DNA from: an uncultured Acidimicrobiales bacterium
Lineage (GTDB): Bacteria; Actinomycetota; Acidimicrobiia; Acidimicrobiales; Bin134
Direction of reading: 5' to 3'
Length of the DNA: 64,000 bases
NCBI GenBank assembly: GCA_951813555.1
Contig: OX638344.1
Coordinates: 1,688,990-1,752,989 of the forward strand
Shown here: in pieces, positions 6,709-25,337 of the stretch
Layout of the letters: every line of letters starts with the position of its first letter
Position numbering within the stretch: the stretch's first letter is position 1
The notes under the pieces: generated by a model
Told to the model about the DNA's origin: nothing
The model's database searches: none
What the model saw: the letters and a program-made list of their open reading frames with translations, nothing else
Program-made: the position numbers and the translations under genes

Positions 6709-7929
6709 CTAGCTCGGTATCTCGCGGAAGGGGACCCCTTTGTCCACCCGGATGTCGGGGGGAAGGCCCAGCACCTTCTCGCCGATGGTGTTGCGCTGGA
6801 TGTCGTCGGTGCCACCGCCGATGCGCGACGCCCACTGGCTCAGGAACTCGTATTGCCAGCGTCCCTCGTCTCGGGCACTGTCCCCGTGGAGCATCCCAGC
6901 CGCCCCGCTCATGGCCATAACCAAATCGCCCATCTCCGCAAAGTGCAATGAGATGGCCAGCTTCATGGTGGAGCTCTCCGGTCCGGGCAGCTCCCCCCGG
7001 CTGGCCGCGGTCCGAACCCGGTATCCCTGATACTTCATGATTTCCATGCGGGTGTAGGCCTTGGCCAGCTCTTGGCGCAGGACCGGATCGCGGTCGGTGC
7101 CGGTTCGCTGGGCCAGTTTCACCAATTCCTGGAATCGGGTCCGGGCGTTGGAGCTGCCGATCAGGGCCCGCTCGTTGGCCAGCGTGGTCATGATCGGCCC
7201 CCATCCGGTGTTGACCCCGCCGAGGATGTTCTCGTGGGGCACCCGTACATCCGACAAGAACACCTCGTTGAAGTTGGCGGCGCCGGTGATCTGGACCAGC
7301 GGGCGCACTTCGATGCCGGGAGTGTTCATGTCCAACAGGAAATAGGTGATGCCCCGGTGCTTGGGCTGGTCGGGGTCGGTGCGAGTCAACAGGATGGCCC
7401 AGTCGCTGTATTGGGCACCCGAGGTCCACACCTTCTGGCCGTTTACCACCCACTCATCGCCGTCGCGCACCGCGGCGGTCCGCAGCCCGCCGAGATCCGA
7501 GCCGGCCGCTGGCTCGGAGAACAGTTGGCACCACACCTCGTCGCCCTTGAGCATGGCGGGCAGGAATCGCTGCTTTTGGGCGTCGGTGCCGTGGGCGATG
7601 ATGGTCGGGCCCGTCATGCCGATGCCCACTGAGAATACTCCGGTGGCCGACACCCGCCGGGCTTCTTCTTCTTTGAAGATCCCCTCGTGGATGCCGCTCA
7701 GGCCCTTGCCGCCGTACTCGGTCGGCCAGGTGATAGAACCCCAGCCGCCGTCGTATTTGGTGCGCTGCCAGGCTTTGCACCGGTGTACGTAGGACAACTC
7801 GATCTCGGGGTCGGTGATAGTCACAGTGGTCTGGGTTCGGGCGCCGCCGCCGGCGGGGACGTTGGCGTCCAGCCATTCAATGCACTCGGCTCGAAAGGCA
7901 GCTTCCTGGGGTGTCTCGTCGAAATCCAT
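6709..7929 (-). CDS. Acyl-CoA dehydrogenase
   Basis: MDFDETPQEAAFRAE... is a typical ACAD N-terminus, and the C-terminus carries GGGTDDIQRNTIGEKVLGLP. The internal ATG at 7929 is preferred over 8007. Confidence 0.8.
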   Translation of the reverse strand: MDFDETPQEAAFRAECIEWLDANVPAGGGARTQTTVTITDPEIELSYVHRCKAWQRTKYDGGWGSITWPTEYGGKGLSGIHEGIFKEEEARRVSATGVFSVGIGMTGPTIIAHGTDAQKQRFLPAMLKGDEVWCQLFSEPAAGSDLGGLRTAAVRDGDEWVVNGQKVWTSGAQYSDWAILLTRTDPDQPKHRGITYFLLDMNTPGIEVRPLVQITGAANFNEVFLSDVRVPHENILGGVNTGWGPIMTTLANERALIGSSNARTRFQELVKLAQRTGTDRDPVLRQELAKAYTRMEIMKYQGYRVRTAASRGELPGPESSTMKLAISLHFAEMGDLVMAMSGAAGMLHGDSARDEGRWQYEFLSQWASRIGGGTDDIQRNTIGEKVLGLPPDIRVDKGVPFREIPS

Positions 7930-8035
7930 GCCGCGTTGATGGTAGCCAGAGCGCTCCCGGCAGGCCCCACCGGACAATGGGTCCGCTAGGACTGTTGTCC
8001 CCTCCATTCGGGCTCAGCAGGCGGAGGATGGTTCA

Positions 8036-9181
8036 ATGATGGCCGTGAAATTCTCCATGATCTTCGAAGCCCAGATGGCCGACCCGTCTCGTGAGACTGA
8101 GCAGCAGGTCATCCGCGACTGCGTGGAGCAAGCGGTGTTGGCCGAGGAAGTGGGGTTCGACCGGATCTGGGCGGTGGAGCACCACTGCCTGAAGTGGTAC
8201 GCCCACATGAGCGCCCCCGAGATATTCCTGACCTGGGTGGCGGCCCGGACGTCCCGCATCCGCATCGGCCACGGGGTGGTGTGCATGCCGTTCGGCTACA
8301 ACCACCCGCTGCGGGCCGCGGAGCGCATCGCCATGCTGGACGTGCTGTCGGGCGGGCGGTTGGACGTGGGCGCGGGCCGGGGGGCCACCCTCCAGGAGAT
8401 GTCGGCGTTCGGGGTCAAGCCCGAGGACACCTACGCCCAGGTGGAGGAGTCGCTGCGGATCATCTCCAACTGCTGGCGGGATGAGGAGTTCGAGTGGGAG
8501 GGCCTGCTCGACATCTCGCCGCATCCTATTCTCCCCCGCCCGGTGCAAGATCCCCATCCGCCGCTGTATCTGGCCTGCACCAAGGTGGACACCGTGCGGC
8601 TGGCCGCCGAGCTGGGCATCGGCGCCCTGGTGCTGGGGTTCGCCGGCGCCGACGAGATCCGGCTGATGAAGGAGACCTACGACGAGGCCATCGCCACCCG
8701 CACCGGGGAGCGGTTCGTGAGCGATCATCCCAATAACTGGTTCTCGGCGCTGTGCCCCACCACGATCCTCGACGACCGGGACGAGGCCTTCCGCATCGGG
8801 GTTCGGGGCCAGCGGTTCTTCGCCGAGGCCATCATGCACTGGAACCTGGGCACACCTCCGCCTCGGGCCGGATCAGCCGACGAGGATACCGCCGCGGCCA
8901 TCGACGAGGCGGTGGGCAACGTCCACGCCAAGATCAGCGAGATGAACATCCCGCTGAGCCCCAACGCCACCAGCACGTTCAACGTCGAGCACGCCTACGG
9001 CGACTACGAAGACGCCATCCGCTACGTGAGCGAGCTCGAGGCCGTCGGCTGCGACGAGATCATGTGCATGATCCAAATGGGCACCATCCCCCAAGAGGTC
9101 ATGCTCGAGACCATCCGCCAATTCGGCCACCACGTGATCCCCCACTTCCGGGCCAAGCAGGAAGCGGCGGTACCGGCGTAG
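8036..9181 (+). CDS. LLM-class (luciferase-like) flavin/F420-dependent oxidoreductase
   Basis: The N-terminus FSMIFEAQ...AEEVGFDRIWAVEHH is a pattern typical of luciferase-like monooxygenases. Length is 381 aa. Confidence 0.7.
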   Translation: MMAVKFSMIFEAQMADPSRETEQQVIRDCVEQAVLAEEVGFDRIWAVEHHCLKWYAHMSAPEIFLTWVAARTSRIRIGHGVVCMPFGYNHPLRAAERIAMLDVLSGGRLDVGAGRGATLQEMSAFGVKPEDTYAQVEESLRIISNCWRDEEFEWEGLLDISPHPILPRPVQDPHPPLYLACTKVDTVRLAAELGIGALVLGFAGADEIRLMKETYDEAIATRTGERFVSDHPNNWFSALCPTTILDDRDEAFRIGVRGQRFFAEAIMHWNLGTPPPRAGSADEDTAAAIDEAVGNVHAKISEMNIPLSPNATSTFNVEHAYGDYEDAIRYVSELEAVGCDEIMCMIQMGTIPQEVMLETIRQFGHHVIPHFRAKQEAAVPA

Positions 9182-9206
9182 CCACTCTCCACGGTATCCT
9201 CGTCCC

Positions 9207-10205
9207 ATGGCGACTCTGGTTGCCGACAAAGCACCGACGCTCGATGATGCCGCCCGCGGCGCTGAGGCGATAGCCGCGGCCGATCCGCACATTGTCCGAA
9301 TCGTGGTCTTCGGGTCGGTGGCAAAGAGCACCCAGCAGCCCGGCTCCGACATCGACATCATCGTCGTCACCAGTACATCTCGGCCGTCAGCCGAAGATCG
9401 CCGGGCGACCAAGTACGCCCTGCGCCAGGCGGCTGAAACCGCATGCGGGATCAAATGCGAGGTGATCCTCGCCACTATCGGCGAATGGGAGTGGAGCTTG
9501 GAGCATGCCCGTTCCTCCGTTTTCGGGGAAGCGCATGCCCACGGCGTCATCCTCATGCAGCGCCCCTGCCCACCTCCGGCCCTATGGGCCGAGGAGATCG
9601 CTGTGCTGCGAGACGACTGGGGCCTCGCCCTCAAAGACCTTGAAGAGGCCCACCGCAAGAACTTGGAACTAATCCGAATCCTCGAGTCCATCCCCGGCAA
9701 AGCAGCCGCGGGCGAATGGTTGTCTGCCGACCGCGGGTATGCCTATGAGTCTGCGCTGGAATCCGCCCACATGAGCATCGAGAAGAGCCTGACCGCGCTG
9801 GGCCGGCTCCACCTTCGCCGATATCTCGACAACACCCACGCCATCGATGTCATGGCTGGCAAGCTCCGCTCAACCCCGTCTGGTCGTTTCGTCGATAGCG
9901 TGCTGGACACGCTCGACACCGCCGAGAACGACGGTTCTCATACCAACTGGAGGCTCGCTCCCTATCTGGGCCAGTCGGACTCATTCCAACAGATGATCGC
10001 CCCCAACAACACCGCCGCCCACATACGCGCCGCCGCCGACCTCCTTGAGCACGCTCTTGCCGCCACCGCCAAGTCCGCCCTGCGCCCCATCCCCATCCCT
10101 ACCGACGATGCCACCACCCTCTACCGCTTTGCGGAGCCCATCGACTACCTCCGCCACCACGCCACCCCCGACTACCTGCAAACCGGAATTCCTCCATGTC
10201 CTTGA
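9207..10205 (+). CDS. Fused nucleotidyltransferase (MNT) - HEPN domain protein
   Basis: The N-terminus carries the minimal NTase motif VVFGSVAKSTQQPGSDIDIIVV. The C-terminal helical region carries the RRYLDNTH (Rx4-6H) HEPN motif at nt 9816..9839. Confidence 0.6.
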   Translation: MATLVADKAPTLDDAARGAEAIAAADPHIVRIVVFGSVAKSTQQPGSDIDIIVVTSTSRPSAEDRRATKYALRQAAETACGIKCEVILATIGEWEWSLEHARSSVFGEAHAHGVILMQRPCPPPALWAEEIAVLRDDWGLALKDLEEAHRKNLELIRILESIPGKAAAGEWLSADRGYAYESALESAHMSIEKSLTALGRLHLRRYLDNTHAIDVMAGKLRSTPSGRFVDSVLDTLDTAENDGSHTNWRLAPYLGQSDSFQQMIAPNNTAAHIRAAADLLEHALAATAKSALRPIPIPTDDATTLYRFAEPIDYLRHHATPDYLQTGIPPCP

Positions 10206-10937: not shown

Positions 10938-11273
10938 TTAGCGTGTTTTGGAACCGATCTGGATTGGGATGACAGTTTCTTCCTCGTCGCCTTCAAAAAC
11001 GGCGGAAATCCGCAGTGTGGCGCCAAGTCCCTGTACATAGTTGTCGAGGGTGGAGATCAAGATGTCGTCCCCGCGCTCAAACTGGGAAACGGCAGATTGC
11101 GTGATTCCCATGGCCTCGGCCAGATCAGTCTGCGACAGCTTGAGGACTCCTCGGATTTCTTGGAGTTCAATCTCGGCCAAGGTCTCCTTGCGGAGTTCCG
11201 CGAGTCGTTCGACGGCACCGGGCCGGGTAATGACCTTTTGATGAAGACGGTGATAACTCTTGCTTGATGGCAT
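10938..11273 (-). CDS. XRE-family helix-turn-helix protein (antitoxin/Aca-like or local regulator)
   Basis: The HTH is LKLSQTDLAEAMGITQSAVSQFERG. Length is 111 aa. It is transcribed away from the cas operon. Confidence 0.7.
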   Translation of the reverse strand: MPSSKSYHRLHQKVITRPGAVERLAELRKETLAEIELQEIRGVLKLSQTDLAEAMGITQSAVSQFERGDDILISTLDNYVQGLGATLRISAVFEGDEEETVIPIQIGSKTR

Positions 11274-11351: not shown

Positions 11352-11648
11352 CTAATACTCCAACACTTCGAACCCGAGGCAGCGGAGTACACAAACCGCA
11401 GAATCGGAACTGCTCACGCCCCCATTCAGCTTCCCTTCCCATCTGGTCACTCCAGCGGCGATTCCGACGATCGCCTTCGATGGGTAGCCCTTCTGCTCCC
11501 ACACCAACCAGTATCGCCGCGCTGCCCTATATCCCCACTGCCTCGCAACCCCATCAGCACCCAGCCTGTCGTATTCGGCTATCGCCTTGAGGATATCGGA
11601 GCAGGTGATGCTGTCAGTCCACTTCACTTGCTGAGTCTTGCACCTCAC
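11352..11648 (-). CDS. Small hypothetical protein (98 aa), upstream partner of the XRE gene
   Basis: GTG-initiated ORF with coding-like codon usage in an AT-richer stretch. The segment ILKAIAEYDRLG...WGYRAARRYWLVWEQKGYPSKAIVGIAAG recalls, from memory only, the N-terminal 'head' domain seen in McrA-like HNH nucleases. Confidence 0.4.
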   Translation of the reverse strand: MRCKTQQVKWTDSITCSDILKAIAEYDRLGADGVARQWGYRAARRYWLVWEQKGYPSKAIVGIAAGVTRWEGKLNGGVSSSDSAVCVLRCLGFEVLEY

Positions 11649-11845
11649 CCGACAGCCCCATAAGTAGGCGATTCCACTGCCCCGTGCCTGCTGAAGAAAT
11701 TGAAGTCGGCGTGTCTCCAGGAGGGCGACAAAGGCGTTTCAACCAGGTGCTATGTGTCCATTGAGCAATGATCAAGACCATATTGTCATCACCTCTTGCT
11801 AACGTCACCGACACCTTTGCCAATGGAAGAAGAGGAGAGGGCTTT

Positions 11846-13093
11846 ATGACCCAACTAATGCAGGAAGAAGGACACGTCTCTCTGCTGACGTACGAGAAAC
11901 TGCGAGATGCGGTAGCGGGAGGAGCTGTTGCGCTGAGGTCCCGGACGGAGTTGCAGCCGGCGGACGGGCCAGGGGGAAAGGTATTTCCGCCGACCTATGC
12001 GGTGAACGCCGGGCACAAGTACGCCGTTGAGACTCGCCAGATTGGTGACCGTGAGGTGCAGACGGTCCTTTTGGACTCGGTGGCATCTCAAGCGAACCGT
12101 GCCGAGTTGGCTCTGTTGGAGGGCTGGGAGGCTGGTGAATTGAAGTTTCCTGTCCCATACGTCGACTTCTCAACGGAGAATGGTGAGTTCAACGATGTTG
12201 GCCGACTGACTGTGTTGGAGGCACCCCATCGGCTTGCTGACGCTATCTTCCGCGACAGCCTCCTTGACGGCACGCTGTTTCGTCTGTCTGAGGTAGGTCG
12301 AGCGATTACTGACGCGCAGCCCCGCAACGCAACCGCACTGTTCCGGTATGCCCCCACGGCGCTGCTGTTCGGCCAGTGGGACTCCACTGGGCCAAAGGGC
12401 GGTCTGGGGTCCAAGTTCCAGCGGGCATACGTGTCTGAGATTGTCGGCCACGATGTGCGGATTGGGCGCAAAGTCGGAAGTCGGTTGGATCCGCTTCAGA
12501 TAGAGCGGGAGGCGGCAGTGGTTTATGAGCATCAGGACTCTGAACAGCACTGGACACTGGATAAAGCCGAAGCCGCCGTAGAGAAGAGCAAGCCAAGAGT
12601 CGCTGGGGCTGACGGGAAACCTTCTCAGATCAACCACGGGAACATCGCTCCCAGCATTGATGCTGTTTCGGGGGGCGTAACGATTTCGGCCGCGGTTCAG
12701 ACGACCGTGATCTCGCTCGCCGCTCTTCGCCGTCTGCGGTTTGCCGGCTACAGCCGAGAGGCAGAAGCCGCAGCACGGACAGCGGTTGCCGCGCTAGGAG
12801 TGGCTGCTCTGGTCTTGCAGCACGAAATGGATCACGACCTACGGTCCCGTTGCCTATTGATCCCGCAGCATTTGCCACGCATCGAACTGGTTGGTCGCGA
12901 TGGCGCAGCTCCAAAGAGCGTCGAAGTCGACCGCGATGCCGCAGCTCAGATTCTGGCCCAGTCTGCACAGGCATCAGCTGATCTGGATTTGGGGTGGGAG
13001 ACTGCCGAGATCAAGCTCCAGCCAGCTCCCAAGCTGCTTGAGCTACTCCGGCGCAGTCGTGAGGTTTCTGCACGCGAGACTCCGGGGGAGTGA
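11846..13093 (+). CDS. cas7: Type I-G/I-U Cas7 (Csb1, GSU0053 family)
   Basis: The motif GKVFPPTYA and overall RAMP-like composition match the Csb1/Cas7u family as I remember it. ATG 11846 sits 6 nt after GGAGAGG. It is the first gene of the cas operon. Confidence 0.75.
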   Translation: MTQLMQEEGHVSLLTYEKLRDAVAGGAVALRSRTELQPADGPGGKVFPPTYAVNAGHKYAVETRQIGDREVQTVLLDSVASQANRAELALLEGWEAGELKFPVPYVDFSTENGEFNDVGRLTVLEAPHRLADAIFRDSLLDGTLFRLSEVGRAITDAQPRNATALFRYAPTALLFGQWDSTGPKGGLGSKFQRAYVSEIVGHDVRIGRKVGSRLDPLQIEREAAVVYEHQDSEQHWTLDKAEAAVEKSKPRVAGADGKPSQINHGNIAPSIDAVSGGVTISAAVQTTVISLAALRRLRFAGYSREAEAAARTAVAALGVAALVLQHEMDHDLRSRCLLIPQHLPRIELVGRDGAAPKSVEVDRDAAAQILAQSAQASADLDLGWETAEIKLQPAPKLLELLRRSREVSARETPGE

Positions 13094-13096
13094 TCT

Positions 13097-14767
13097 GTGC
13101 TTGCCGTTGAGGTTAACTTCCTCACTGGCCGGTTCGTGGCTACCTCGCACAACGACCGAGAGGCCAGTGAGTGGCCGCCGCACCCAGCCAGGTTGTTCTC
13201 AGCCCTCGTTGCCGGCTGGGCCGAAGCCGGTGAAGATGATGCCGAGCGTGAGGTTCTGGAATGGCTGGAAGCTCAACCAGCCCCATCTCTTGCGACCTCA
13301 GAGGCTGATCCCCGCAGAACCGTGAGCTATTTCGTGCCGGTCAATGACGCCAGCATCATCAGTGGGGCTTGGTACAGGCGCCGCAGCGAGAATCTCGACA
13401 AGCTGGAAGATCAATTCGATTCCGAACTCCAGCAATCCGGTGGTGAGCTGACCAAGAAGGCCGAGCGGACCCGCGACAAGATTCAGAAGGAGCTAGACGT
13501 TGACAGCCAAGTGTCCAATGTAGGGACGACTTCGCCTAGGTCGGCATTGGAACTGCTGCCTGAAAGTAGAGGCAAGCAAGAACGGCACTTTCCGTCGGTC
13601 ACCCCGATCGAACCGCGGGTGACCTTCATTTGGCCAGATGCCCACTGCCGAGAGGCGACGAGGAACTCGTTGGACAACTTGCTCAAAAGGGTTACCCGCA
13701 TCGGGCACTCGTCATCTCTGGTGTCATGTCGTCTTGTCGGTGAACCGCCTGCCCCAAACTGGATCCCAGGAACAGGCAACCAGGTTCTTAGATGCGCTGG
13801 CCCTGGTCAGCTAACGGCACTGAAAGAGAGGTACCGACAGCACCAGGCCATCAGGCCGAGGTCGCTCCCGTTTTCTGCGATCCACTACGGCGAAGTGGCA
13901 GGCGAGCATGGGTCGTTGCCTCCGCTACTTCCAGACACGGCAGGAGAGTGGATCGTTTTCGAGTTTCTTGCGCGGTCGCGGCGGTTTCCTTCCTCGCGAA
14001 CCTTGGAAATCGCCTCCGCTATGCGGGCGGCCATCATGTCCTATGCCGAGGATCCAATTCCCGAAGGCCTAAGCGGTCATCAACCTGCCGGAAGCCCGAC
14101 CCTGGAACCGCATGTGGCTTTTTTGCCGCTGCCCTATGTGAGGTTCGAGCACGCCGACGGCAGAGTCATGGGACTAGCAGTGTCTCTGCCGGGATCTTTG
14201 ACCGAGGAGTCCCGGCGAGCGACCCTGCGGGCGATCGGTCGCTGGGAGCAACGGAGCGACTCGGGGCAATTAGTCCTCACCCTAGGTAGCAAGGGGCTAA
14301 TTCAGATCCAGCGCAAGAGCGGTCCGATTGATCTCGTGACAATCAGGCCAGAGCTTTGGAGCAAGCCTTCCAAGCAGTGGGTGTCAACCACCCCGATTGC
14401 CTTGCCCACCCATCCGGGGCCACTGAGCAAGGGGAGCGCTGCTGCTCGTTCCAAGGCCTGGGACCGAGCGGAACTGGCAGTGGTCGCTTCTTGTCGTCAT
14501 GTTGGGCTTCCAGAGCCAGCCCAAGTCGAGGTGTCGTTCGATCCTTTCGTTCGAGGCGCTAAGCCAGCCTCAGATTTCCCGACATTTCGCCAGCGAGGCC
14601 GTGATGGCAAGCCAGTTGCTCGTCGGCTCCTGCATGCCGCGTTGAGATTCGATCAGCCAGTCCAAGGGCCTCTGATGCTGGGAACCGGGCGCTTCCTGGG
14701 TCTTGGTCTGATGCGACCAGTGAGTGAATCGGAAATTGCTCGAGACGAGGCAGTAGGCGATGAGTGA
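13097..14767 (+). CDS. csb2: Type I-G/I-U Cas5-Cas6 fusion (Csb2, GSU0054 family)
   Basis: The N-terminus VEVNFLTGRFVATSH...EWPPHPARLFSALVAGW is the hallmark Csb2 start. Length is 556 aa. It has a GTG start and overlaps cas3 by 8 nt. Confidence 0.8.
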   Translation: MLAVEVNFLTGRFVATSHNDREASEWPPHPARLFSALVAGWAEAGEDDAEREVLEWLEAQPAPSLATSEADPRRTVSYFVPVNDASIISGAWYRRRSENLDKLEDQFDSELQQSGGELTKKAERTRDKIQKELDVDSQVSNVGTTSPRSALELLPESRGKQERHFPSVTPIEPRVTFIWPDAHCREATRNSLDNLLKRVTRIGHSSSLVSCRLVGEPPAPNWIPGTGNQVLRCAGPGQLTALKERYRQHQAIRPRSLPFSAIHYGEVAGEHGSLPPLLPDTAGEWIVFEFLARSRRFPSSRTLEIASAMRAAIMSYAEDPIPEGLSGHQPAGSPTLEPHVAFLPLPYVRFEHADGRVMGLAVSLPGSLTEESRRATLRAIGRWEQRSDSGQLVLTLGSKGLIQIQRKSGPIDLVTIRPELWSKPSKQWVSTTPIALPTHPGPLSKGSAAARSKAWDRAELAVVASCRHVGLPEPAQVEVSFDPFVRGAKPASDFPTFRQRGRDGKPVARRLLHAALRFDQPVQGPLMLGTGRFLGLGLMRPVSESEIARDEAVGDE

Positions 14768-17507
14768 GCTGACGGCAGAGGACTTTTCTGCCTACTTCCA
14801 GCAGGTCCATGGCCAAAGTCCGTTTCCATGGCAGCAGCGCCTCACTACCCAAGTGCTCAGCGACGGCCAATGGCCAGATGTCATTGATCTGCCCACTGGA
14901 ACCGGCAAGACCGCGGTGCTCGACACGGCGATATTCGCTTTGGCTGCTCGTCCCGAACTGTTTCCACGTCGAGTGGTTTTCGTCATCGACCGGAGGATCG
15001 TTGTCGACCAGGTTGTTCAACGTGCCCAGACAATTCAAGGGAAGATTCAAGAGGCCTCGACCCCGATACTGGCGAGCATCAAAGAGCGCCTGGGAGACAT
15101 AAGTGGAGAGTCACCACTGGGGGTAGTGGCCTTGCGAGGCGGAATCTCTATCGACGGAGAGTGGGCCCGTCGTCCCGACGAGCCCTGGGTGATGGTGTCC
15201 ACTGTGGACCAATACGGCTCCCGGCTGTTGTTCCGCGGCTATGGAGTTAGCCCGAAGATGCGTCCGGTACACGCTGGATTGGCTGGCAACGACTGTTTGG
15301 TGGTTCTCGATGAGGTCCATTTGAGCCGGGCATTTGCCGCGACATTGCAGGAAGTGGGAAGTCTCAGCAGCAATGGTGATCTTCCCCGGAGATTTCATGT
15401 AGTCGAGATGTCGGCAACGCCGACGAATTCCAACGGAAAACGGTTTGAGTTGACCGAAGCAGACTTGGAAGGCTCCGCTGAACTTCGTCGTCGTGCCAAG
15501 GCCGCTAAATCGGCCAAGCTGCATGATGCCGGACCGAAGGCTCCGCATGTGGCGATTCCAGCTTCCGTAAAGAAAATTCTGAAATCTGAGCTTGATCCGA
15601 CGATTCACAGGGTGGGTGTGATCGTCAACCGGGTACGAACGGCCCGTGAAATCCATCGGGAGCTATTGGAGGCTGGGTGCTCAGCGCATCTGATTACTGG
15701 GAGAATGCGGCCGCTCGACAAGGCAAGGTCGCTTGAAACGATTGCTTCGATAGTCGATCCAGACAAGCGGCCAGGTGGCGAGGGTCTGACTGTGGTAGTC
15801 GCTACTCAGGCCATCGAAGTCGGTGCAGATTTCAGCTTCGATGCGTTGATCACCGAGGTTGCTCCCATCGATAGCTTGCGGCAGCGATTCGGCCGGCTCG
15901 ACCGTCGGGGTGACCTTGCCGCGCGGACCGGGGAACCGGCAAAGGCCTGGATTGTCGGGGCTAAGGCGACGCTCAGCCCTACGCGACCAGATCCCATTTA
16001 CGGCGACTCGGCCCGAACCACGTGGGAGGAGCTACAGGAGCTGGAAGGGTTCGATTCCATCGACTTCAGCCCACGTCCTGAGTCGCCACATCATTTCCCC
16101 GAAGAGTGCTACGCCCCCGCAGCTCAAGCACCGCTACTTCTTAGTACGTACATGGATGCCTGGGTTCAGACGTTTCCCGAGCCAATTGTCCAGCCTGCCG
16201 TGGACTGGTTCTTGCACGGGATCGAACGTGAGCCACAAGTTGCAGATGTGAACATCGCCTGGCGCTACGACCAAACTCTGGATGCACTCAACGCGGTTCC
16301 GCTCCGTCCGGCTGAATTCCTTCAAGTCCCAATCGGGGCCGCGAAAGCCTGGCTTGGAGGAGCAGCTGAGGAAGTGCCAGTTGCTGATGTCAGTGCGAAA
16401 TCAGAGTCTGATGTGGCTTTTGGAAGCGCTCTGGGAACCGGTTGGCTTCGCTGGCGGGGATTTGACGAAGACCCCGAACCGATTTCGGTAGGCGCAATTC
16501 GTCCGGGGGACACTCTCATTGTCGATCCGTTGCGAGGCGGACTCTCCGGCGGTACCTGGGATCCCAATTCAACAAATCCAGTAGAAGACTTGGGAGACGA
16601 GGCTCAGGCCGCGTACGGCCAGCGCTACACCATGCGGCTGGACAAACAGCTAATGCCCGAGGACTGGTGGCCAACTCCACCACGCCCGGATGATGAGCAG
16701 GGAGCCTTGGAGCCTCTGTCTGAGCGGATCGACCGGTGGCTGGCCGAAGTTGCTGTTCTTCCCGATTTGCTCGAATGGCAGCAGGAAGCCGTCGAGAAGA
16801 TCAGGAACGGGGTCTTGATCAAGTCGTTGGATGACTACTACGTGCTTACCACCGGGAATGTCGATTTTTCGACGTTGGATGGTTCAGACCAATCATCGTC
16901 TTTCACCGGTACGGGTGTCACACTCCGCGGTCATCTGAGAGGAGTCGGGGAGCGGGCTGCCGATTATGGCCGCAGACTTGGCCTGAGTTCAGAGATTCAG
17001 GCCGACCTCAAACTCGCCGCCCAGCTCCACGACTTGGGCAAGGTCGACTCTCGTTTTCAAAAACAGATGGTCGGCGATGACGAAGTGCATCTGGCTATGC
17101 TCAGTGAGCCTCTAGCCAAGTCACTTCCAGGTGCCCGTCCTGAACGTGACAAATGGCCACCCGTTCGACACGAGATCATGAGCGTGGCCTTGGCCCAGTC
17201 CAACTCCGAGGTAATGGCTGCTGCCTGCGATCCCGATCTGGTCCTCCACCTCGTTGGCACCCATCACGGGTTTGCCCGTCCTCTTCCGCCGATTAGAGAA
17301 GACCTTTGTCCTGAGGTGCTCAAGTTCGATCACGAAGGTATCCCCATGGAAGCGAGCACCGAACTTGTGGAGAGCACACTGGCCTTGGAGATGGCCGACC
17401 GTTTCTGGAAATTGGTAGGGCGCTACGGCCATCACGGACTGGCATGGTTGGAAGCCATTCTCCGGCTTGCCGACCACCAACAGAGCGCCGAGGAGGCCAA
17501 CCAATGA
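14760..17507 (+). CDS. cas3: Cas3 helicase with C-terminal HD nuclease domain (type I-G architecture)
   Basis: Helicase motifs PTGTGKTA (Walker A) and VVLDEVHLS (DEVH) are present. The C-terminus carries the HD motifs LHDLGKVDSRFQ, RHEIMS and GTHHGFARP. Confidence 0.85.
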   Translation: MSELTAEDFSAYFQQVHGQSPFPWQQRLTTQVLSDGQWPDVIDLPTGTGKTAVLDTAIFALAARPELFPRRVVFVIDRRIVVDQVVQRAQTIQGKIQEASTPILASIKERLGDISGESPLGVVALRGGISIDGEWARRPDEPWVMVSTVDQYGSRLLFRGYGVSPKMRPVHAGLAGNDCLVVLDEVHLSRAFAATLQEVGSLSSNGDLPRRFHVVEMSATPTNSNGKRFELTEADLEGSAELRRRAKAAKSAKLHDAGPKAPHVAIPASVKKILKSELDPTIHRVGVIVNRVRTAREIHRELLEAGCSAHLITGRMRPLDKARSLETIASIVDPDKRPGGEGLTVVVATQAIEVGADFSFDALITEVAPIDSLRQRFGRLDRRGDLAARTGEPAKAWIVGAKATLSPTRPDPIYGDSARTTWEELQELEGFDSIDFSPRPESPHHFPEECYAPAAQAPLLLSTYMDAWVQTFPEPIVQPAVDWFLHGIEREPQVADVNIAWRYDQTLDALNAVPLRPAEFLQVPIGAAKAWLGGAAEEVPVADVSAKSESDVAFGSALGTGWLRWRGFDEDPEPISVGAIRPGDTLIVDPLRGGLSGGTWDPNSTNPVEDLGDEAQAAYGQRYTMRLDKQLMPEDWWPTPPRPDDEQGALEPLSERIDRWLAEVAVLPDLLEWQQEAVEKIRNGVLIKSLDDYYVLTTGNVDFSTLDGSDQSSSFTGTGVTLRGHLRGVGERAADYGRRLGLSSEIQADLKLAAQLHDLGKVDSRFQKQMVGDDEVHLAMLSEPLAKSLPGARPERDKWPPVRHEIMSVALAQSNSEVMAAACDPDLVLHLVGTHHGFARPLPPIREDLCPEVLKFDHEGIPMEASTELVESTLALEMADRFWKLVGRYGHHGLAWLEAILRLADHQQSAEEANQ

Positions 17508-18409
17508 ACGGCACTCACCTCACGGGCCTCGAAGGCACGAATCCCCTTGGATTTTTCGCGGCCTTGGGTGTGCAGGTCGCGTTCGAAGGGGAAGGAGAAG
17601 TACCTCGTTTGTGGTGGAGTGATGATGTTGTTCCTCACGCCGTGGTGGATGGTTCTTTCAGTATCGAGAACATCGCTTCCCGGGCGATGGAGGTGTTTCC
17701 TGCGTGGTTGGAGAGTCCTGCAATAAAAACTAGCCTTGAACCTGCTGGCGATGTGAAGTTCAACGAATGGGACATCACGACCTATCTCGACAATGCGCGA
17801 CTCGCTGGCCCTAATGCTGGTCTAGCAGCGTGTCTCGTGGCTGAAGGGAGCTTCGACAACAGCAATGCAGCAAAGCCAACCGATCTCTATTTCACAGCCG
17901 GCCAGCAAAAGTTCTTGAGGATGATCGTGGATATCCTCGAAGGAGTCACAGCAGAAGACCTGGAAATTGGAATAACTGGGCCATGGCCTTATCAGAGCAA
18001 GTTGAGTTCCCTCATGTGGGATGTCGCGGACGACAGCAACTACGCCTTGTCGGCCAGCGACCCCTCGAAAGGAAAGAAACTGACCAACCCCGGTGTAGAA
18101 GCCCTCGCGATTCTCGGTATCAGCAACTACCCGGTGTTCGGCAGTCCGGGCCGAACACGGACCCAAGGAACCTCTGGAGGGTGGAAACGCGGGGCTTTCG
18201 CATGGCCGATCTGGGCAAGACCGGCATCGCACAGAACTGTCTCTTCTCTGCTTGCTCACACCACAGGTGCCCAACCGGAATTGAGTACGCGGGCAGACCT
18301 GTACCCGTCTTGGGGTATCTCGCAGATCATGCAGTCAGCTATCAGACGCAGCGACCAGGGCGGATACGGCACGTTCGGTCCCCCTGAGGTTGTCTGGTCT
18401 CGTGGCTGA
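17504..18409 (+). CDS. Short Cas8-like large-subunit candidate (Cas8u/Csb3- or Csx17-like)
   Basis: An ATGA overlap joins it to the cas3 stop. The N-terminus LTGLEGTNPLGFFAALGVQVAF resembles the N-terminus of Csx17/Cas8u proteins. At only 301 aa, the assignment rests mainly on position in the operon. Confidence 0.5.
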   Translation: MNGTHLTGLEGTNPLGFFAALGVQVAFEGEGEVPRLWWSDDVVPHAVVDGSFSIENIASRAMEVFPAWLESPAIKTSLEPAGDVKFNEWDITTYLDNARLAGPNAGLAACLVAEGSFDNSNAAKPTDLYFTAGQQKFLRMIVDILEGVTAEDLEIGITGPWPYQSKLSSLMWDVADDSNYALSASDPSKGKKLTNPGVEALAILGISNYPVFGSPGRTRTQGTSGGWKRGAFAWPIWARPASHRTVSSLLAHTTGAQPELSTRADLYPSWGISQIMQSAIRRSDQGGYGTFGPPEVVWSRG

Positions 18410-20042
18410 CGCACCTGATCTCGTTCCGGCCAGAATGGTCAACGAGTTCGAGTACTGCCCGCGGCTCTTCTACTTGGAGTGGGTCCAATCACGCTTCGAA
18501 GACAACCCTGACACCGTCGAAGGCCGTTATGTGCATCGGAATGTGGATGCTGGTGGGGGGCGCATCGACGACCCTGATGAAGACAGCCCGGTACGGAAAG
18601 CCCGTTCAGTTACCATCAGTTCTGAAGACCTGGGGATAATCGCCAAAGCGGACATTATTGAAGGCAAGGGGAACAAGGTCACCCCGGTTGAGGTAAAGCG
18701 GGGGCGGTCGCCGAAGCATGGCCCGGCGTGGTCGCCTGATCTTGTGCAGATCTGCGCCATCGGCCTCATACTCCAGGACAATGGGTATGACTGCTCAGAG
18801 GGTCAGATCTTCTTTGCCGAGTCGCGTGAGCGCGTCAAAGTGCCCTTCGACGAGAAGCTGGTGTGGCAGACCCTGAACGTGCTGCGAGACTTGAGAGAGG
18901 TTGCTGTATCGCCCGATCCGCCGCCTCCCCTCGTAGACAGCCCCAAATGCCCTCGATGCTCGCTGGTGGGAATCTGTTTGCCTGACGAAACAAATCTTCT
19001 GGCCAACCGATCGGATGTTCCACCCCGTCGCTTGACTCCCAGGGACTCCGCGGCCCGGCCTCTCTACGTGACAGAGCAGGGGACCAGGATTGGGGTCAGG
19101 AAGGGAAGGGTCACGGTTTCTCAGCAGAAGGAGGTTCTCCAGGAGGTCAGGCTGATTGATGTCTCTCAAGTTTCAATTTACGGAAATGTGCAGATCAGCT
19201 CCCAGGCAATGAGGGCGATGTTCGATCAGCAGGTTCCAGTCTGCTGGTTTTCCTACGGTGGCTGGTTCCAAGGCATTGCCCATGGGCTGCCCTCCAAGCA
19301 CGTCGATCTTCGGAGGCGCCAAGTTGCTATTGCCGCGCAGGCAGGTCTGCCGATAGCCCAAAAGATGATTGAAGGGAAGATCAGGAATTCAAGGACACTG
19401 TTGCGACGGAACTCACGAAGTGAAGTCAAGCCTATTTTGGAACAGTTGAAGGCGACTGCTGATCAGACTGATGATGTAGACACTATTGAATCGCTGTTGG
19501 GTGTGGAAGGTGCAGCAGCCCGGCTCTATTTTTCAGGCTTCTCAGCAATGTTGAAGGATGACTCGTTGGGAACCTTCGACTTTCAAGGGCGAAATAGAAG
19601 ACCTCCTAGAGATCCAATCAATTGCCTACTCTCCTATGGGTATTCCTTGTTGACGAAAGACCTGACTGCCGTCACGCTTGCTGTGGGGTTTGATCCCTAC
19701 TTGGGAGTCTTTCATAAACCGAGATTTGGACGTCCCGCGTTGGCTCTTGATCTTGCTGAAGAGTTTCGTCCCCTCATTGCTGACTCAGTTGTGATCAACG
19801 TAATCAACAACGGTGAGATTCAGGAGAACGGATTTGTGGTCAGAGCTCAAGGCGTTGCCTTGACCCAGCAAGGCCGTCGATCATTTATCGCTGCCTACGA
19901 GCGCCGCCTCGATCAAGAAGTGACTCATCCAGTCTATGGGTACAAGATCACCTACCGCCGTGTCCTAGAGGTTCAAGCGCGGGTGCTGGGCGCGTATTTG
20001 CTCGGTGAGATCCCTAATTATGTGCCGTTCATGACCAGGTGA
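18390..20042 (+). CDS. cas1: Cas4-Cas1 fusion
   Basis: The N-terminus is Cas4-like (FEYCPRLFYLEWV ... CPRCSLVGICLPDE Cys cluster) and the rest is Cas1-like. Length is 550 aa. The start is TTG 18390 or ATG 18435. Confidence 0.85.
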   Translation: MSGLVADAPDLVPARMVNEFEYCPRLFYLEWVQSRFEDNPDTVEGRYVHRNVDAGGGRIDDPDEDSPVRKARSVTISSEDLGIIAKADIIEGKGNKVTPVEVKRGRSPKHGPAWSPDLVQICAIGLILQDNGYDCSEGQIFFAESRERVKVPFDEKLVWQTLNVLRDLREVAVSPDPPPPLVDSPKCPRCSLVGICLPDETNLLANRSDVPPRRLTPRDSAARPLYVTEQGTRIGVRKGRVTVSQQKEVLQEVRLIDVSQVSIYGNVQISSQAMRAMFDQQVPVCWFSYGGWFQGIAHGLPSKHVDLRRRQVAIAAQAGLPIAQKMIEGKIRNSRTLLRRNSRSEVKPILEQLKATADQTDDVDTIESLLGVEGAAARLYFSGFSAMLKDDSLGTFDFQGRNRRPPRDPINCLLSYGYSLLTKDLTAVTLAVGFDPYLGVFHKPRFGRPALALDLAEEFRPLIADSVVINVINNGEIQENGFVVRAQGVALTQQGRRSFIAAYERRLDQEVTHPVYGYKITYRRVLEVQARVLGAYLLGEIPNYVPFMTR

Positions 20043-20045
20043 CCC

Positions 20046-20345
20046 ATGACGCAAGGACGTAAGAGAATCTTGGTGGCGTATGACATCCGTGACTCCAAGC
20101 GCCTCCGAAAAGTCCACAAAACGATGGTGGGCTACGGCTGGTCGATGCAGTACAGCGTGTTCATCTGCGACCTCGATGCAATGGAGATGATTGCCATGAA
20201 GACTGAACTAGGAGAGATCATCCACCATGCTGAAGACTCCATTGCTATGATCGACATCGGTGACCCGAGTCAGAGGGGCAGAGACTGCTTCCAGTTTATG
20301 GGAGTATCCGTCCCCTTGCCGACCAGTGGCCCAGTCATTCTGTGA
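20046..20345 (+). CDS. cas2: Cas2
   Basis: RILVAYDIRDSKRLRKVHKTMVGYGWSMQYSVFICDL is a canonical Cas2 N-terminus. Length is 99 aa. Confidence 0.9.
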   Translation: MTQGRKRILVAYDIRDSKRLRKVHKTMVGYGWSMQYSVFICDLDAMEMIAMKTELGEIIHHAEDSIAMIDIGDPSQRGRDCFQFMGVSVPLPTSGPVIL

Positions 20346-20516
20346 TGCGAGCGCTGAGGTGGGCCATGAGATACCCGGCAGTGCTCGAAACCGCATGAAT
20401 GCAAGGGTCTTGATGCTCCTTGACATCCGAATAGACCCACAAAAGTGCTTCCACTACACAACCGCTCGTAGCTGCTCGCGAACCCGCAGGTCAGGGTGAG
20501 CGTTTAGGGCGAGCTG
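20346..20516 (+). promoter_or_regulatory. Putative CRISPR leader
   Basis: A 171-nt non-coding, AT-richer segment lies between cas2 and repeat 1. The degenerate repeats are at the opposite end of the array, which sets the polarity. No convincing -35/-10 pair was found. Confidence 0.5.
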
Positions 20517-23500
20517 TTCGGGGGGTTCTATAACCCCCCCTTCATTGAAGCTTAACACCCTCAGATAATGATGCGAATTTCTCCAGAGTTCGGGGGGTTC
20601 TATAACCCCCCCTTCATTGAAGCCCCGATCCAGGCGGCGCCACCACTCCTACCCAAAGGGGTTCGGGGGGTTCTATAACCCCCCCTTCATTGAAGCGCAC
20701 ACCATCCCATCATGGCGGGCCAGCAGAACTGCCGTTCGGGGGGTTCTATAACCCCCCCTTCATTGAAGCCTGTGGACACGGGGGGCAGTGGCTATACCGC
20801 CGTCGTGTTCGGGGGGTTCTATAACCCCCCCTTCATTGAAGCGCATGCGGGTTCACCAGCCTTATCGACCCGTCGGCGTTCGGGGGGTTCTATAACCCCC
20901 CCTTCATTGAAGCCCCGTCGCCTCGGCCGCATCGCCCATCTTGGCGATGGTTCGGGGGGTTCTATAACCCCCCCTTCATTGAAGCCGGATCGAGGTGGAC
21001 GCCCCCGACGGCACCAGGGAGGGTTCGGGGGGTTCTATAACCCCCCCTTCATTGAAGCACTTCGACGCTGGGCGCTATCGAATCCCTTCTGAGTTCGGGG
21101 GGTTCTATAACCCCCCCTTCATTGAAGCTACGTCGTCTCGGTGGACGGCCCCCATTCGTTCGTGCAGGTTCGGGGGGTTCTATAACCCCCCCTTCATTGA
21201 AGCACGGTTTGGGAGGCGCTGGCCCGCGGCATCGTCGGCGGTTCGGGGGGTTCTATAACCCCCCCTTCATTGAAGCGGCCATCCGGTCGATGGCGTCGTA
21301 CATGACCTGCAGGGTTCGGGGGGTTCTATAACCCCCCCTTCATTGAAGCAGCGTCGTCTTCCACCCGTTCCGCCCCAGAAAAAGCGTTCGGGGGGTTCTA
21401 TAACCCCCCCTTCATTGAAGCGGCCGCTTCGCCTTCGCCCCGCTGCCGAGCACCCGCGTTCGGGGGGTTCTATAACCCCCCCTTCATTGAAGCCGCTGGA
21501 GCGCGGCGACTGGCTGATCCTGGCCGGATGTTCGGGGGGTTCTATAACCCCCCCTTCATTGAAGCGTCGCGGCCCTCGGACAGGACGGTGCCGCGCACCG
21601 CCCGTTCGGGGGGTTCTATAACCCCCCCTTCATTGAAGCCAGTATGTGCGGCGGCGGATCGACGACGGGTGGCTGAGTTCGGGGGGTTCTATAACCCCCC
21701 CTTCATTGAAGCGGGGATACGCCGCATCCCCAACGTGATCCCCGCCCGGTTCGGGGGGTTCTATAACCCCCCCTTCATTGAAGCCGGGGATACGCCGCAT
21801 CCCCAACGTGATCCCCGCCCGGTTCGGGGGGTTCTATAACCCCCCCTTCATTGAAGCCTGCTGCGCCATGCGGGAGTCGGGGGAGCTGCATGGTTCGGGG
21901 GGTTCTATAACCCCCCCTTCATTGAAGCGCTTCGCGCAGGTCCGCGCCGCGCAGCTTCGCGCCGGTTCGGGGGGTTCTATAACCCCCCCTTCATTGAAGC
22001 GGGGCATTGGACCGTGGAGGCCGACGCGACGCTGCGTTCGGGGGGTTCTATAACCCCCCCTTCATTGAAGCGGGTACAGCAGATCGGGGGAGTCGGCGCA
22101 TTCCTCGAGTTCGGGGGGTTCTATAACCCCCCCTTCATTGAAGCACGTGGAACTCCCACAGCTCGGGATCAAGCGGATCGCGTTCGGGGGGTTCTATAAC
22201 CCCCCCTTCATTGAAGCGGCGGCGTCGAGTCTCTGGTGGGCGTCGACTTTTTGGTTCGGGGGGTTCTATAACCCCCCCTTCATTGAAGCGAGTGGGACGT
22301 GAATGACAGCTTTCCCGACGGGGTGGTTCGGGGGGTTCTATAACCCCCCCTTCATTGAAGCACGCCCGACAAGAACGGCAAGGTCCCCACGGTGGACATG
22401 TTCGGGGGGTTCTATAACCCCCCCTTCATTGAAGCGAGAAGTTCGTGTGGCCCATCATATGGACTGTGCTCGTTCGGGGGGTTCTATAACCCCCCCTTCA
22501 TTGAAGCACCCAGCGCGGCGACGCCATCGACAAGACATCGACGTTCGGGGGGTTCTATAACCCCCCCTTCATTGAAGCCCGATCCACCATCTGCGGTGCC
22601 GCCTCCCCGAGCCGTGTTCGGGGGGTTCTATAACCCCCCCTTCATTGAAGCCCGCACGAGGCCGTCTAACAGCACGTCCTCATCCAGGGGTTCGGGGGGT
22701 TCTATAACCCCCCCTTCATTGAAGCCCCGAACTCGAAGCCGAGGACGCCAAGGTCGAGGCGGTTCGGGGGGTTCTATAACCCCCCCTTCATTGAAGCATG
22801 CTCAGCGTGGTCGCTGAGGGGCGGCCGTCGGGGGTTCGGGGGGTTCTATAACCCCCCCTTCATTGAAGCTCAACGCTGGTCGGCTGGCATCACTAAGCCC
22901 TGCGGGTTCGGGGGGTTCTATAACCCCCCCTTCATTGAAGCATTGACGCTCAGGCCAGCGAGATTTCCCGGCGTGCCGTTCGGGGGGTTCTATAACCCCC
23001 CCTTCATTGAAGCACCGAGTACGCAGGGTCGCCGGCGGCGGCCTCTCGGGTTCGGGGGGTTCTATAACCCCCCCTTCATTGAAGCGACTTCAACGCCGGG
23101 ACCGAGGTGCTGGACTGGCTGGTTCGGGGGGTTCTATAACCCCCCCTTCATTGAAGCTCGCAGTGGTACTCCAACTCCTCGACATCGGTGATGTTCGGGG
23201 GGTTCTATAACCCCCCCTTCATTGAAGCACCGTCCGCATGCTGAACGTCATGGCGGCCACCCACGGGTTCGGGGGGTTCTATAACCCCCCCTTCATTGAA
23301 GCCTGGACCTCCAGACGGGGACGTGCGGGACCTCGCCTCGTTCGGGGGGTTCTATAACCCCCCCTTCATTGAAGCTAAGATAAATCCTGCCGTTTGCCCC
23401 ATCAGAGATGGGTTCGGGGGGTTCTATAACCCCCCCTTCATTGAAGCCACGACGACATCTACTGCGCCGACATCACCGACGATGGTTCGGGGGGTTCTAT

Positions 23501-23953
23501 AACCCCCCCTTCATTGAAGCCGGACCCACCGACCAGGCTGAGCCATCACCACTGCGGGTTCGGGGGGTTCTATAACCCCCCCTTCATTGAAGCGCCTTCG
23601 AGCTGCTGTTGGCCCCGGACTGGGCGTGGTTCGGGGGGTTCTATAACCCCCCCTTCATTGAAGCTGGACCCGGACCGCTATCGGGGTGGTGGCCAGTGAT
23701 GTTCGGGGGGTTCTATAACCCCCCCTTCATTGAAGCTGCTCCTTGCTGACGGACATCTCGGCGCTGATCTGCACGTTCGGGGGGTTCTATAACCCCCCCT
23801 TCATTGAAGCATCCACTGGGGAGCCTCGTCGAGCACGACGATCGTCGTTCGGGGGGTTCTATAACCCCCCCTTCATTGAAGCGCGACAATCGTGGTGACG
23901 TGGATCACCAGCTCCAGGTTTGGGGGGATATTGAACCCCTTCTTCATTGAAGC
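20517..23953 (+). CRISPR. CRISPR array: 48 repeats (36-nt consensus GTTCGGGGGGTTCTATAACCCCCCCTTCATTGAAGC), 47 spacers of 34-39 nt
   Basis: All repeat starts were located by hand (20517, 20588, 20661, ... 23847, 23918). The last repeat, GTTTGGGGGGATATTGAACCCCTTCTTCATTGAAGC, has 7 mismatches. The first repeat appears to have a G5 rather than G6 run. Confidence 0.97.
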
Positions 23954-24026: not shown

Positions 24027-24113
24027 TAAGGGAATCCAATTGTCGACGTCCAGTGTATGTAGTTCTCTTGAACTCCTGAGATACTGTCACAGGTGGGTTG
24101 TATTCTTGTGGGC

Positions 24114-25337
24114 ATGGAGTTCACTGGTGTAGCGGGTTCTGAACCCGCAACCACAAGGGATAAATCTGGTGTGGAGCCAGAGGTTGCGTTGTGTGTATTC
24201 CGTGAGAATGTTGGTGAGTTGTCTACCGAAGTGTTGGATGATCGGATCGAGGAATTGGGCCGGGCTCGGTCGCAGATTGAGGGATTGTTGGCCGAAGCGT
24301 TGGCTGAACGTGCCGCTCAGAGCACTCGTCGGGCCGCTACGGGGGTGTTGCGGGAGCGGGTGTTGGAGTCGGCGGGGCGGGCGAGCTCGGATGTGAAGTT
24401 GGCGGTGTCGTTGTCGGAGGATTTTCCGGCGACGCTGGAGGCGCTGATTGCGGGTGAGATCACCTCGGGTCACGCCCGGGTGATCGACCGGGTGGCGGGG
24501 AAGCCCGACTACCGCAGCGAAGAGGTCGTCTTGGGCGACGCGAAGGCGGTGCCGGCAGATTTGCTGTCGCGATATGCATTGCGTCGGGAGAGGGTCGAGG
24601 TGCGGGACTACACCAAGTACCAGCAACAGCGCCTGGACCGCAGAGGGTTCATGGCCCAAGAGCCCGACGGGTCGTGGATGATGTTTGCCCACTTCGACTA
24701 CATGGCCGGGCGGCGGGTCAGCATGGCCTGGGCCAAGATGGCTGAGGCGTTCCGCCGCGAGGAAAAGCCCGACAGCAAGGTCACCTACTTGCAGCGGAAT
24801 GCTGACGCGCTGGTGCAACTGATCACCCGGGACGGCCCACAGAGGGCAGCGCCGGCATCGCTGTTGATCATCTCCGAGTACGACAGCGCGTCCGGCGAGT
24901 TCGGCCAGCCCCGGCTTGACGACGGGCAGCCCGTGCCTCCGGAGGAATTGGCCCGGCTCGTTGCCGATGCTGATGTTTACGCCGCATTCGCCGACGCTGA
25001 CGGCCAGCCGCTGTGGCTGGGTCGGTCCCAGCGGTCGGCATCTTTGACCCAGCGGATCATGCTCGCGGCCCGAGATGGCGGTTGTGTCGGTTGCAAGGCT
25101 CCGTCAGAGCGGTGCGAGGCCCACCATATCCAGCATTGGTCTGATAACGGCCCCACCGATATCGACAACCTTGCCATGCTTTGTCCGGGCTGCCATCACC
25201 TTGTCCACGATTGCAATTGGCAAATCTGCCGCGAACCCTTGGGTCGATATCGAATCAAGGCTCCCCCCGATCCTTTCCCCGACTACGGGACTACTACCTA
25301 CAAACTCGTCCAGCACAGCCCGGTGCTCCGCAACTGA
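24114..25337 (+). CDS. DUF222/HNH endonuclease domain protein (REP13E12-like family)
   Basis: The C-terminal HNH motif is CVGCKAPSERCEAHHIQHWSDNGPTDIDNLAMLCPGCHHLVH, and the N-terminal part is DUF222-like and helical. ATG 24114 is preferred over GTG 24093. Confidence 0.8.
   Translation: MEFTGVAGSEPATTRDKSGVEPEVALCVFRENVGELSTEVLDDRIEELGRARSQIEGLLAEALAERAAQSTRRAATGVLRERVLESAGRASSDVKLAVSLSEDFPATLEALIAGEITSGHARVIDRVAGKPDYRSEEVVLGDAKAVPADLLSRYALRRERVEVRDYTKYQQQRLDRRGFMAQEPDGSWMMFAHFDYMAGRRVSMAWAKMAEAFRREEKPDSKVTYLQRNADALVQLITRDGPQRAAPASLLIISEYDSASGEFGQPRLDDGQPVPPEELARLVADADVYAAFADADGQPLWLGRSQRSASLTQRIMLAARDGGCVGCKAPSERCEAHHIQHWSDNGPTDIDNLAMLCPGCHHLVHDCNWQICREPLGRYRIKAPPDPFPDYGTTTYKLVQHSPVLRN

Follow-up and report, generated by a model that had tools for sequence, protein, structure and literature searches.

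What does a short protein do when its gene occupies the large-subunit slot of a type I-G CRISPR-Cas operon, directly after cas3? The question is raised by a 64,000-nucleotide (nt) stretch of contig OX638344.1 from an uncultured Acidimicrobiales bacterium (the whole stretch being called the window in what follows). Here a gene for a protein of 301 amino acids (aa), which we call X, lies at 17504-18409 (+) within an intact type I-G operon of the order csb1-csb2-cas3-X-cas4/cas1-cas2, followed by a CRISPR array. The original prediction, made from the letters of the window, described X as an unassigned and unusually short Cas8-like protein. We consider it probable that X serves as the large subunit in a compact type I-G effector encoded by csb1, csb2, cas3 and X, where it would anchor Cas3g to the effector backbone.

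Family, start and neighbourhood of X

X belongs to a family that already has a name. It scored 282.1 bits (E 6.4e-84) against a cut-off of 65 on NCBIfam model NF049934 (adjac_Cas3_IG, 'type I-G CRISPR-associated protein, Cas3-extension family'), with residues 6-294 covering positions 1-298 of 299, and it matched the PADLOC profile PDLC01514 ('Cas8g, CAS-I-U effector_LS') at E 2.6e-59, with residues 1-297 aligned to positions 1-286 of 287. No other NCBIfam model, the Csx17-type models and TIGR04106 included, matched X at E<=10, and Pfam held no family for it. The gene once called unassigned is a full-length member of both families; it is covered by the curated naming models of NCBI and by CRISPR-typing profiles that label it a large subunit, and it is not an orphan. 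Members of NF049934 have the same length of ~300 aa as X and the same site directly after cas3g, show no structural difference from it, and include forms fused to Cas3g.

Homologues were numerous. A search of 5.8 billion proteins returned 1105 of them at E<=1e-3, those among the 120 listed being mostly 291-320 aa long (range 234-352), and an exhaustive profile search with the family gave 1594 cluster representatives at the same threshold. A contig of 3.8 Mb carries an identical copy of X (100%); among the homologues listed, the nearest relatives with a name came from metagenome-assembled genomes (MAGs) of Acidimicrobiia and of Candidatus Poriferisocius.

The start of the gene deserves some care. 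The mechanical open reading frame (ORF) is longer, running from an upstream ATG at 17444 and giving 321 aa; this version was set aside for the start at 17504, because the homologues align from residue 1 of the shorter protein (N-terminus MNGTHLTGLEGTNPLGFFAALGV) and because a 4-nt overlap with cas3 is conserved in relatives. In the window this overlap is an ATGA, the ATG of X at 17504-17506 lying over the TGA of cas3 at 17505-17507. A Shine-Dalgarno sequence, GAGGAGG at 17490-17496 (+), can be read inside the 3' end of cas3, 7 nt before the ATG. The 301-aa frame and its coupling to cas3, as originally proposed, are thus borne out by the sequence and by the conservation of the overlap.

We then looked at gene context in 80 genome loci that hold relatives of X with 51-82% identity. 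X follows cas3 directly in all 80, and in 75 of them csb1 and csb2 both lie ahead of cas3; in each of the remaining five, csb1 or csb2 was not detectable in the fetched stretch, the contig being cut in one. Genes for cas4/cas1 and cas2 adjoin the X locus in about two thirds of the 80. The junction itself was read in 80 loci without fusion, namely an Azotobacter plasmid and 79 of the 80 genome loci, the remaining genome locus having no callable start. The 4-nt ATGA or GTGA overlap occurs in 64 of these, a 1-nt overlap in six and a longer overlap in one, and the remainder have gaps of at most 20 nt. The expectation that homologues would neighbour csb1, csb2 and cas3, and would not occur mostly outside CRISPR-Cas loci, was confirmed.

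The module also travels on plasmids. Azotobacter chroococcum pAcX50e (L082), Thermus thermophilus pHB5018c (L083) and a Streptomyces plasmid (L084) each carry csb1-csb2-cas3-X with no adjacent cas1 or cas2, and in all three X is annotated as a 'hypothetical protein'. The Streptomyces homologue as annotated has 253 aa and covers model positions 90-298 only, without the N-terminal part. Near-complete copies of this type I-G variant were seen in MAGs labelled with more than ten phyla (L001-L080, e.g. L047, L014, L023 and L044), their Cas proteins being 50-60% identical to those of the window. The labels include a Nitrosopumilaceae archaeon, Binatia, Latescibacterota, Chloroflexota, Gemmatimonadota, Gammaproteobacteria and Spirochaetia, and several loci bear the names of sponge symbionts (Poriferisocius, Spongiisociaceae, Porisulfidus). 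This distribution suggests that the variant has spread widely by horizontal transfer, possibly within sponge microbiomes.

These data bear on whether X might be no working subunit at all, being either the decayed, truncated pseudogene of a csx17 of ~700 aa or a gene of other origin that came to lie in the operon. Its length, less than half that of Csx17 (720 aa, 8b2x_M), and its lack of a Pfam family would fit such a remnant. However, X has more than 1000 homologues of the same length, with many invariant columns among the closer ones; its start overlap is conserved and accompanied by a Shine-Dalgarno sequence; its synteny is invariant across many phyla; and it gives a confident single-domain model (see below). 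There is hardly any chance, in our view, that X is a remnant or a stray gene, and we return to it as a candidate large subunit.

Fold and relatives among type I-G large subunits

AlphaFold2, supplied with 30 homologues, modelled X as one mixed alpha/beta domain with beta strands at its end and no helical bundle (predicted local distance difference test (pLDDT) 83, predicted template modelling score (pTM) 0.88). When this model was compared with the PDB using Foldseek, the sole match at E<=1e-3 was the Csx17/Cas8g chain of the type I-G effector 8b2x (649 modelled residues; E 3.9e-5, probability 1.0). Together with the PADLOC match, this upholds the original view of X as a Cas8-like protein in the large-subunit slot. 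The second fold match was 7tr6_C, a chain of a type I-A Cascade, at E 0.12. No fold of a Cas6, of an enzyme or of a repeat-associated mysterious protein (RAMP) was among the PDB matches of the model, and a fold search of viral predicted structures (BFVD) gave nothing at E<=1e-3. Similarity to a non-Cas family, which would have spoken against a Cas8-like protein, was found neither by structure nor by hidden Markov model.

At the level of sequence, neither X itself nor a profile of its close homologues found a Cas protein among PDB sequences. A profile built from 116 members of the X family had Csx17 (8b2x_M) as its top match, with a whole-sequence E of 0.019 and collinear pieces that pair X profile positions 2-42 with Csx17 8-49 and 231-260 with Csx17 303-332. 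The two proteins share collinear motifs, 'L.G....L.ALGVLR' in an N-terminal strand-helix and 'PLWE.P.SL'. The N-terminal likeness to Csx17 noticed originally is therefore real, given this top match, and at the same time weak.

Cas8g has been described as an alpha/beta N-terminal domain resembling Cas8a2, joined to a Cas11-like helical C-terminal domain (Shangguan et al., PMC9638904). Csx17/Cas8g1 of Thioalkalivibrio sulfidiphilus resembles X in that its gene lies directly after cas3. It differs in being more than twice as long, in carrying at its C-terminus a Cas11-like helical bundle, absent from X, and in the order of its operon, which is cas3-cas8g-cas7-csb2, unlike the csb1-csb2-cas3-X of the window. 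With 301 aa, no bundle, an alignment confined to the N-terminal-domain part and no significant match to a Csx17-family profile, X falls outside Csx17/Cas8g1 proper. As modelled, it corresponds to the N-terminal domain of Cas8g1, minus the Cas11-like C-terminal bundle.

A second relative is Csb3. Authentic Csb3 was recovered by scanning metagenomes with a repeat fragment of Bifidobacterium animalis subsp. lactis, using the adjoining Csb1 as a query and collecting contigs with whole loci. The loci obtained from B. animalis and B. pseudolongum (L095-L097) run cas4/1, cas2, csb1, csb2, cas3 and then a gene of 348-363 aa, which sources name Csb3 and which matches PADLOC profile PDLC01374 at E 1e-139. 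The wording of one paper (PMC9335239) had suggested a csb3 ahead of cas3 in B. lactis; the contigs show csb1-csb2-cas3-csb3, the same order, with the large subunit after cas3, as that of the window.

Aligned with hhalign, the X-family and Csb3-family profiles matched with a probability of 96.7% (E 3.3e-10), the alignment of 244 columns pairing X 3-262 with Csb3 3-288. Identity over the aligned profile columns is ~17%, and the N-terminal secondary-structure elements follow one another in the same order. An AlphaFold2 model made independently for Csb3 (pLDDT 86) had 8b2x (E 1.9e-4) and 7tr6_C (E 0.015) as its top two PDB matches, in the same order as for X. Csb3 is longer (~350 aa), with an extra helical segment of its own at about residues 283-317, ahead of the terminal strands, and its homologue search returned 37 clusters, nearly all from Bifidobacterium or other Actinomycetota. 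Judged from the profile comparison, X is a remote homologue of Csb3; it does not belong to the Csb3 family in the narrow sense because it has no score on PDLC01374. Of the earlier suggestion of a Csb3-type protein, the homology and the shared synteny stand and the direct profile match does not. The alternative label Cas8u1 does not suit X, since one source uses it for a protein of ~700 aa.

The kinship with Csb3 opens another reading of X, as a Cas6-like RAMP protein of the RRM fold. Makarova et al. (2011, PMC3150331) proposed this for Csb3 from secondary-structure prediction, likening it to Cas6-family RAMPs with a C-terminal helical extension, and X is its remote homologue. The models of X and Csb3, however, match no Cas6, Cas5 or Cas7 in the PDB, Cas8g coming first for both. 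A conserved histidine reported to follow strand 1 in Csb3 is not kept in the X family, H5 not being invariant; Csb3 has no RNase activity (bioRxiv 10.1101/2022.08.19.504415); and the Cas6 nuclease is already supplied by Csb2 (PMC9638904). A RAMP identity is very improbable on this evidence, and the fold continues to point to a Cas8g-type large subunit.

How short is X among such subunits? In type I-G, large subunits come in quite different sizes, Csx17/Cas8g1 being the largest of three variants (PMC9638904). Typical lengths are ~285 aa for Cas8g2 (TIGR04106), ~300 aa for the X family (NF049934), ~350 aa for Csb3 and ~650-720 aa for Csx17/Cas8g1, so about 280-360 aa is usual in three of these four families. 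X is neither unusually short nor uniquely minimised, and the 700-aa benchmark used originally fits Cas8g1 only.

Cas8g2 of the Geobacter/Cereibacter type shares with X a short large subunit encoded directly after cas3. In Cereibacter azotoformans p4 (L085) it has 288 aa and matches TIGR04106 ('cas8c_GSU0052 / type I-G Cas8g2', model length 282). Its gene lies upstream of cas7 and csb2, whereas X stands at the end of the effector operon, and an hhalign comparison of the X-family profile with this single Cereibacter sequence detected no relationship (probability 1%). Cas8g2 has been described as keeping the helical C-terminal part of Cas8 (Makarova 2011). The Cereibacter locus is also peculiar in its Csb2 (7551-9638), which has 695 aa against 460-570 aa elsewhere, and it carries genes for WYL-domain and helix-turn-helix (HTH) proteins upstream of cas3.

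Fusions to Cas3g and the small-subunit question

The 150 best representatives of the X family were screened for fusions, and in three of them (P0192, P0195 and P0266) the X domain forms the C-terminal part of a larger protein. P0192 (1349 aa) and P0195 (1338 aa) each consist of a complete Cas3g (TIGR02621) followed by NF049934, and P0266 is a fragment of the same Cas3g::X kind. P0192 was present on four contigs, the three shown coming from separate JGI and ENA samples, and P0195 was present on two. Because the fusions recur on several contigs from separate samples, and because P0192 and P0195 are merely 39% identical, the Cas3g::X fusion either is old or has arisen repeatedly, and does not stem from an assembly error. 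It also explains the NCBI name 'Cas3-extension'. In the P0192 and P0195 loci (L086-L090), csb1 and csb2 lie upstream and there is no separate large-subunit gene, leaving a three-gene effector module. One set of these loci has HicA/HicB beside csb1, and the other has no cas1 or cas2 within the stretch shown.

The fusions are gene-fusion evidence for a contact between X and the C-terminal (HD nuclease) end of Cas3g, a contact that for the organism of the window we infer. In the mechanism we propose, the ATGA overlap would tie the synthesis of X to that of Cas3g, and X would bind the HD nuclease end of Cas3g and dock it on the backbone of Cas7g, Csb2 and CRISPR RNA (crRNA), making Cas3 a constitutive rather than a recruited subunit. 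By analogy with other Cas8 proteins, X would probably contribute to reading the protospacer adjacent motif (PAM) and to initiating the R-loop as well. Anchoring Cas3 to Cascade is most likely what X does, and this role agrees with experiments showing Cas3 to be an integral subunit of type I-G effectors.

The same facts can be approached from the side of Cas3. X might be a detached C-terminal domain of Cas3g that modulates the helicase-nuclease, within a Cascade that has no Cas8 and in which Csb2, through its Cas5 part, or Cas7 reads the PAM, the arrangement of minimal type I-F2/I-Fv complexes. The family name, the in-frame fusions in two divergent lineages and the position of X, which is always downstream of cas3, translationally coupled to it and never beside csb1, would all suit such an accessory. 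Against it, the structural match and the weak match in sequence both point to the large subunit Cas8g/Csx17; Csb3, a remote homologue of X, co-purifies with Csb1, Csb2 and crRNA when the construct has no cas3 (bioRxiv 10.1101/2022.08.19.504415); and Cas8g of T. sulfidiphilus bridges Cas3 to the backbone (PMC9638904). Without Cas8g, Cas3 does not join the backbone in that system (PMC9638904). In B. lactis, the type I-G system interferes with TAT and TAC PAMs, and repression by Cascade in cell-free transcription and translation (TXTL) needs Cas3 (PMC9335239). We regard a role confined to modulating Cas3 as unlikely. Moreover, the two readings largely overlap, since an accessory of Cas3 and an anchor for Cas3 are the same bridge seen from opposite ends.

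A number of points weigh against X as a Cas8g-type anchor. The curators at NCBI named NF049934 a 'Cas3 extension' and not Cas8, and the literature searched held no experiments on its members. The fold match to 8b2x is moderate (query TM-score 0.47, root-mean-square deviation 11.5 Å), and for its Cas8g chain 8b2x itself relies on an AlphaFold model that was docked into ~8 Å density (PMC9638904). The aligned pieces of X and Csx17 are not significant individually. In PADLOC at E<=1, X matched PDLC01514 alone and left the Csb3 profile PDLC01374 unmatched, so that functional transfer from Csb3 rests on remote homology. Finally, the PAM role is drawn purely by analogy, and in T. sulfidiphilus the N-terminal domain of Cas8g is some way away from the crRNA's 5' end (PMC9638904).

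If X is a large subunit without a bundle, where is the small subunit? The original prediction had remarked that no separate gene for one was present, and this was correct: neither cas11 nor any other small-subunit family was detected among the operon genes. Type I-G has been described as being without a cas11 gene (PMC9638904). An internal start in X that would yield a small-subunit-like product, the solution suggested originally, did not hold up. M1 is the sole conserved methionine column among the 116 X-family members, and M171 is kept in close relatives only. In the model of X, the product from M171 would be mostly beta strands, and strands of this kind are predicted to make up most of the C-terminal half. 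The pattern of those Cas8 proteins from which Cas11 is translated internally (types I-B, I-C and I-D) was not found in X, which has no conserved internal start and no C-terminal helical bundle.

A Cas11-like domain could also have been relocated to the backbone subunit. Csb1 of the window (~415 aa) showed no sign of an added domain and is collinear with Bifidobacterium Csb1; compared with PDB sequences it had no match. It is longer than Cas7g of Cereibacter (344 aa), the difference being spread over several insertions and the termini. Since there is no cas11-like gene in the operon, no conserved internal start in X and no relocated domain in Csb1, this type I-G variant appears to work without a Cas11-like module.

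The rest of the locus and what it means

The other five genes of the operon were all assigned. The backbone subunit gene csb1 (cas7g) occupies 11846-13093 (+) and matches TIGR02570 (E 4.8e-23) and PF09617 (E 2.7e-52). Its mechanical ORF begins at 11768 and has 441 aa, with no ribosome-binding site. The true start is probably the ATG at 11846, giving 415 aa, because GGAGAGGG lies 6 nt upstream of it and because the alignments with homologues, Bifidobacterium Csb1 included, begin there. The type I-G signature gene csb2 at 13097-14767 (+) encodes a Cas5-Cas6 fusion, matching TIGR02165 over its full length at E 2.4e-96 and PADLOC Cas56g at E 2e-124. Cas3g (14760-17507, +; 915 aa) joins a helicase to an HD nuclease at the C-terminus, the HD domain spanning residues 722-909; its match to TIGR02621 has E 3.6e-216 and aligns residues 8-910 with positions 1-854 of 854.

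Gene X, with its 301 aa from the NF049934 'Cas3-extension' family, comes next, and an out-of-frame ORF is listed at 17983-18387. The adaptation module follows. It comprises a cas4g/cas1g fusion at 18390-20042 (+; NF049935, E 2.4e-235) and cas2 at 20046-20345 (+), which matches TIGR01573 and PF09827. In the window operon all NCBIfam type I-G models scored over their cut-offs, in keeping with the definition of a type I-G locus, and the locus is a complete type I-G system.

The CRISPR array at 20516-23882 (+) has 47 copies of a 36-nt repeat (GTTCGGGGGGTTCTATAACCCCCCCTTCATTGAAGC) with zero mismatches among them, and 46 unique spacers of 34-39 nt. Identical repeats combined with unique spacers suggest that the array was recently active. 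The 3' end of the repeat (CTTCATTGAAGC) is similar to that of the B. lactis type I-G repeat fragment that had served as the scan query (CTTCATTGAGGG). A search for protospacers of the 46 spacers gave no credible one in the window or in 97 fetched loci, and in IMG/VR there was no exact match to spacer 1 or spacer 3.

Other genes flank the system. Upstream of csb1 and divergent from it are a gene for an HTH_3 (XRE-type) protein at 10938-11273 (-) and a 98-aa ORF without a family at 11352-11648 (-), which may form a regulator or a toxin-antitoxin-like pair beside the cas operon. About 200 nt past the last CRISPR repeat, a gene at 24093-25337 (+) encodes a protein with DUF222 and an HNH endonuclease domain.

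Taken together, these results do not overturn the current understanding of type I-G systems. For annotation, they mean that the labels 'hypothetical' and 'unassigned' should give way, for X, to that of a short type I-G large subunit (Cas8g, Csb3-like, NF049934). Conserved coupling of translation and recurrent fusion to Cas3 are comparative evidence for a Cas8-like domain as the anchor of Cas3 in this variant.

A broader picture can be put forward tentatively, and we give it a little less than an even chance. The csb1-csb2-cas3-X effector would work without any Cas11-like element, a Cas8g reduced to its N-terminal domain would be the obligate stoichiometric partner of the C-terminus of Cas3, and Csb3, X and Cas8g1 would share a single fold, which may or may not bear a helical tail. 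We found no statement of such a link between X, Csb3 and the N-terminal domain of Cas8g1 in the literature searched. If it is true, it would unify these type I-G large subunits, Cas8g2 staying unlinked, and it would raise the question of how an R-loop is stabilised by a Cascade without a Cas11-like domain. The fusion lineages would then represent a three-gene interference machine (cas7g, csb2 and cas3-cas8), one of the most compact among those type I systems whose nuclease is built in, and the fused version could serve as an unusually compact Cas3-based editor.

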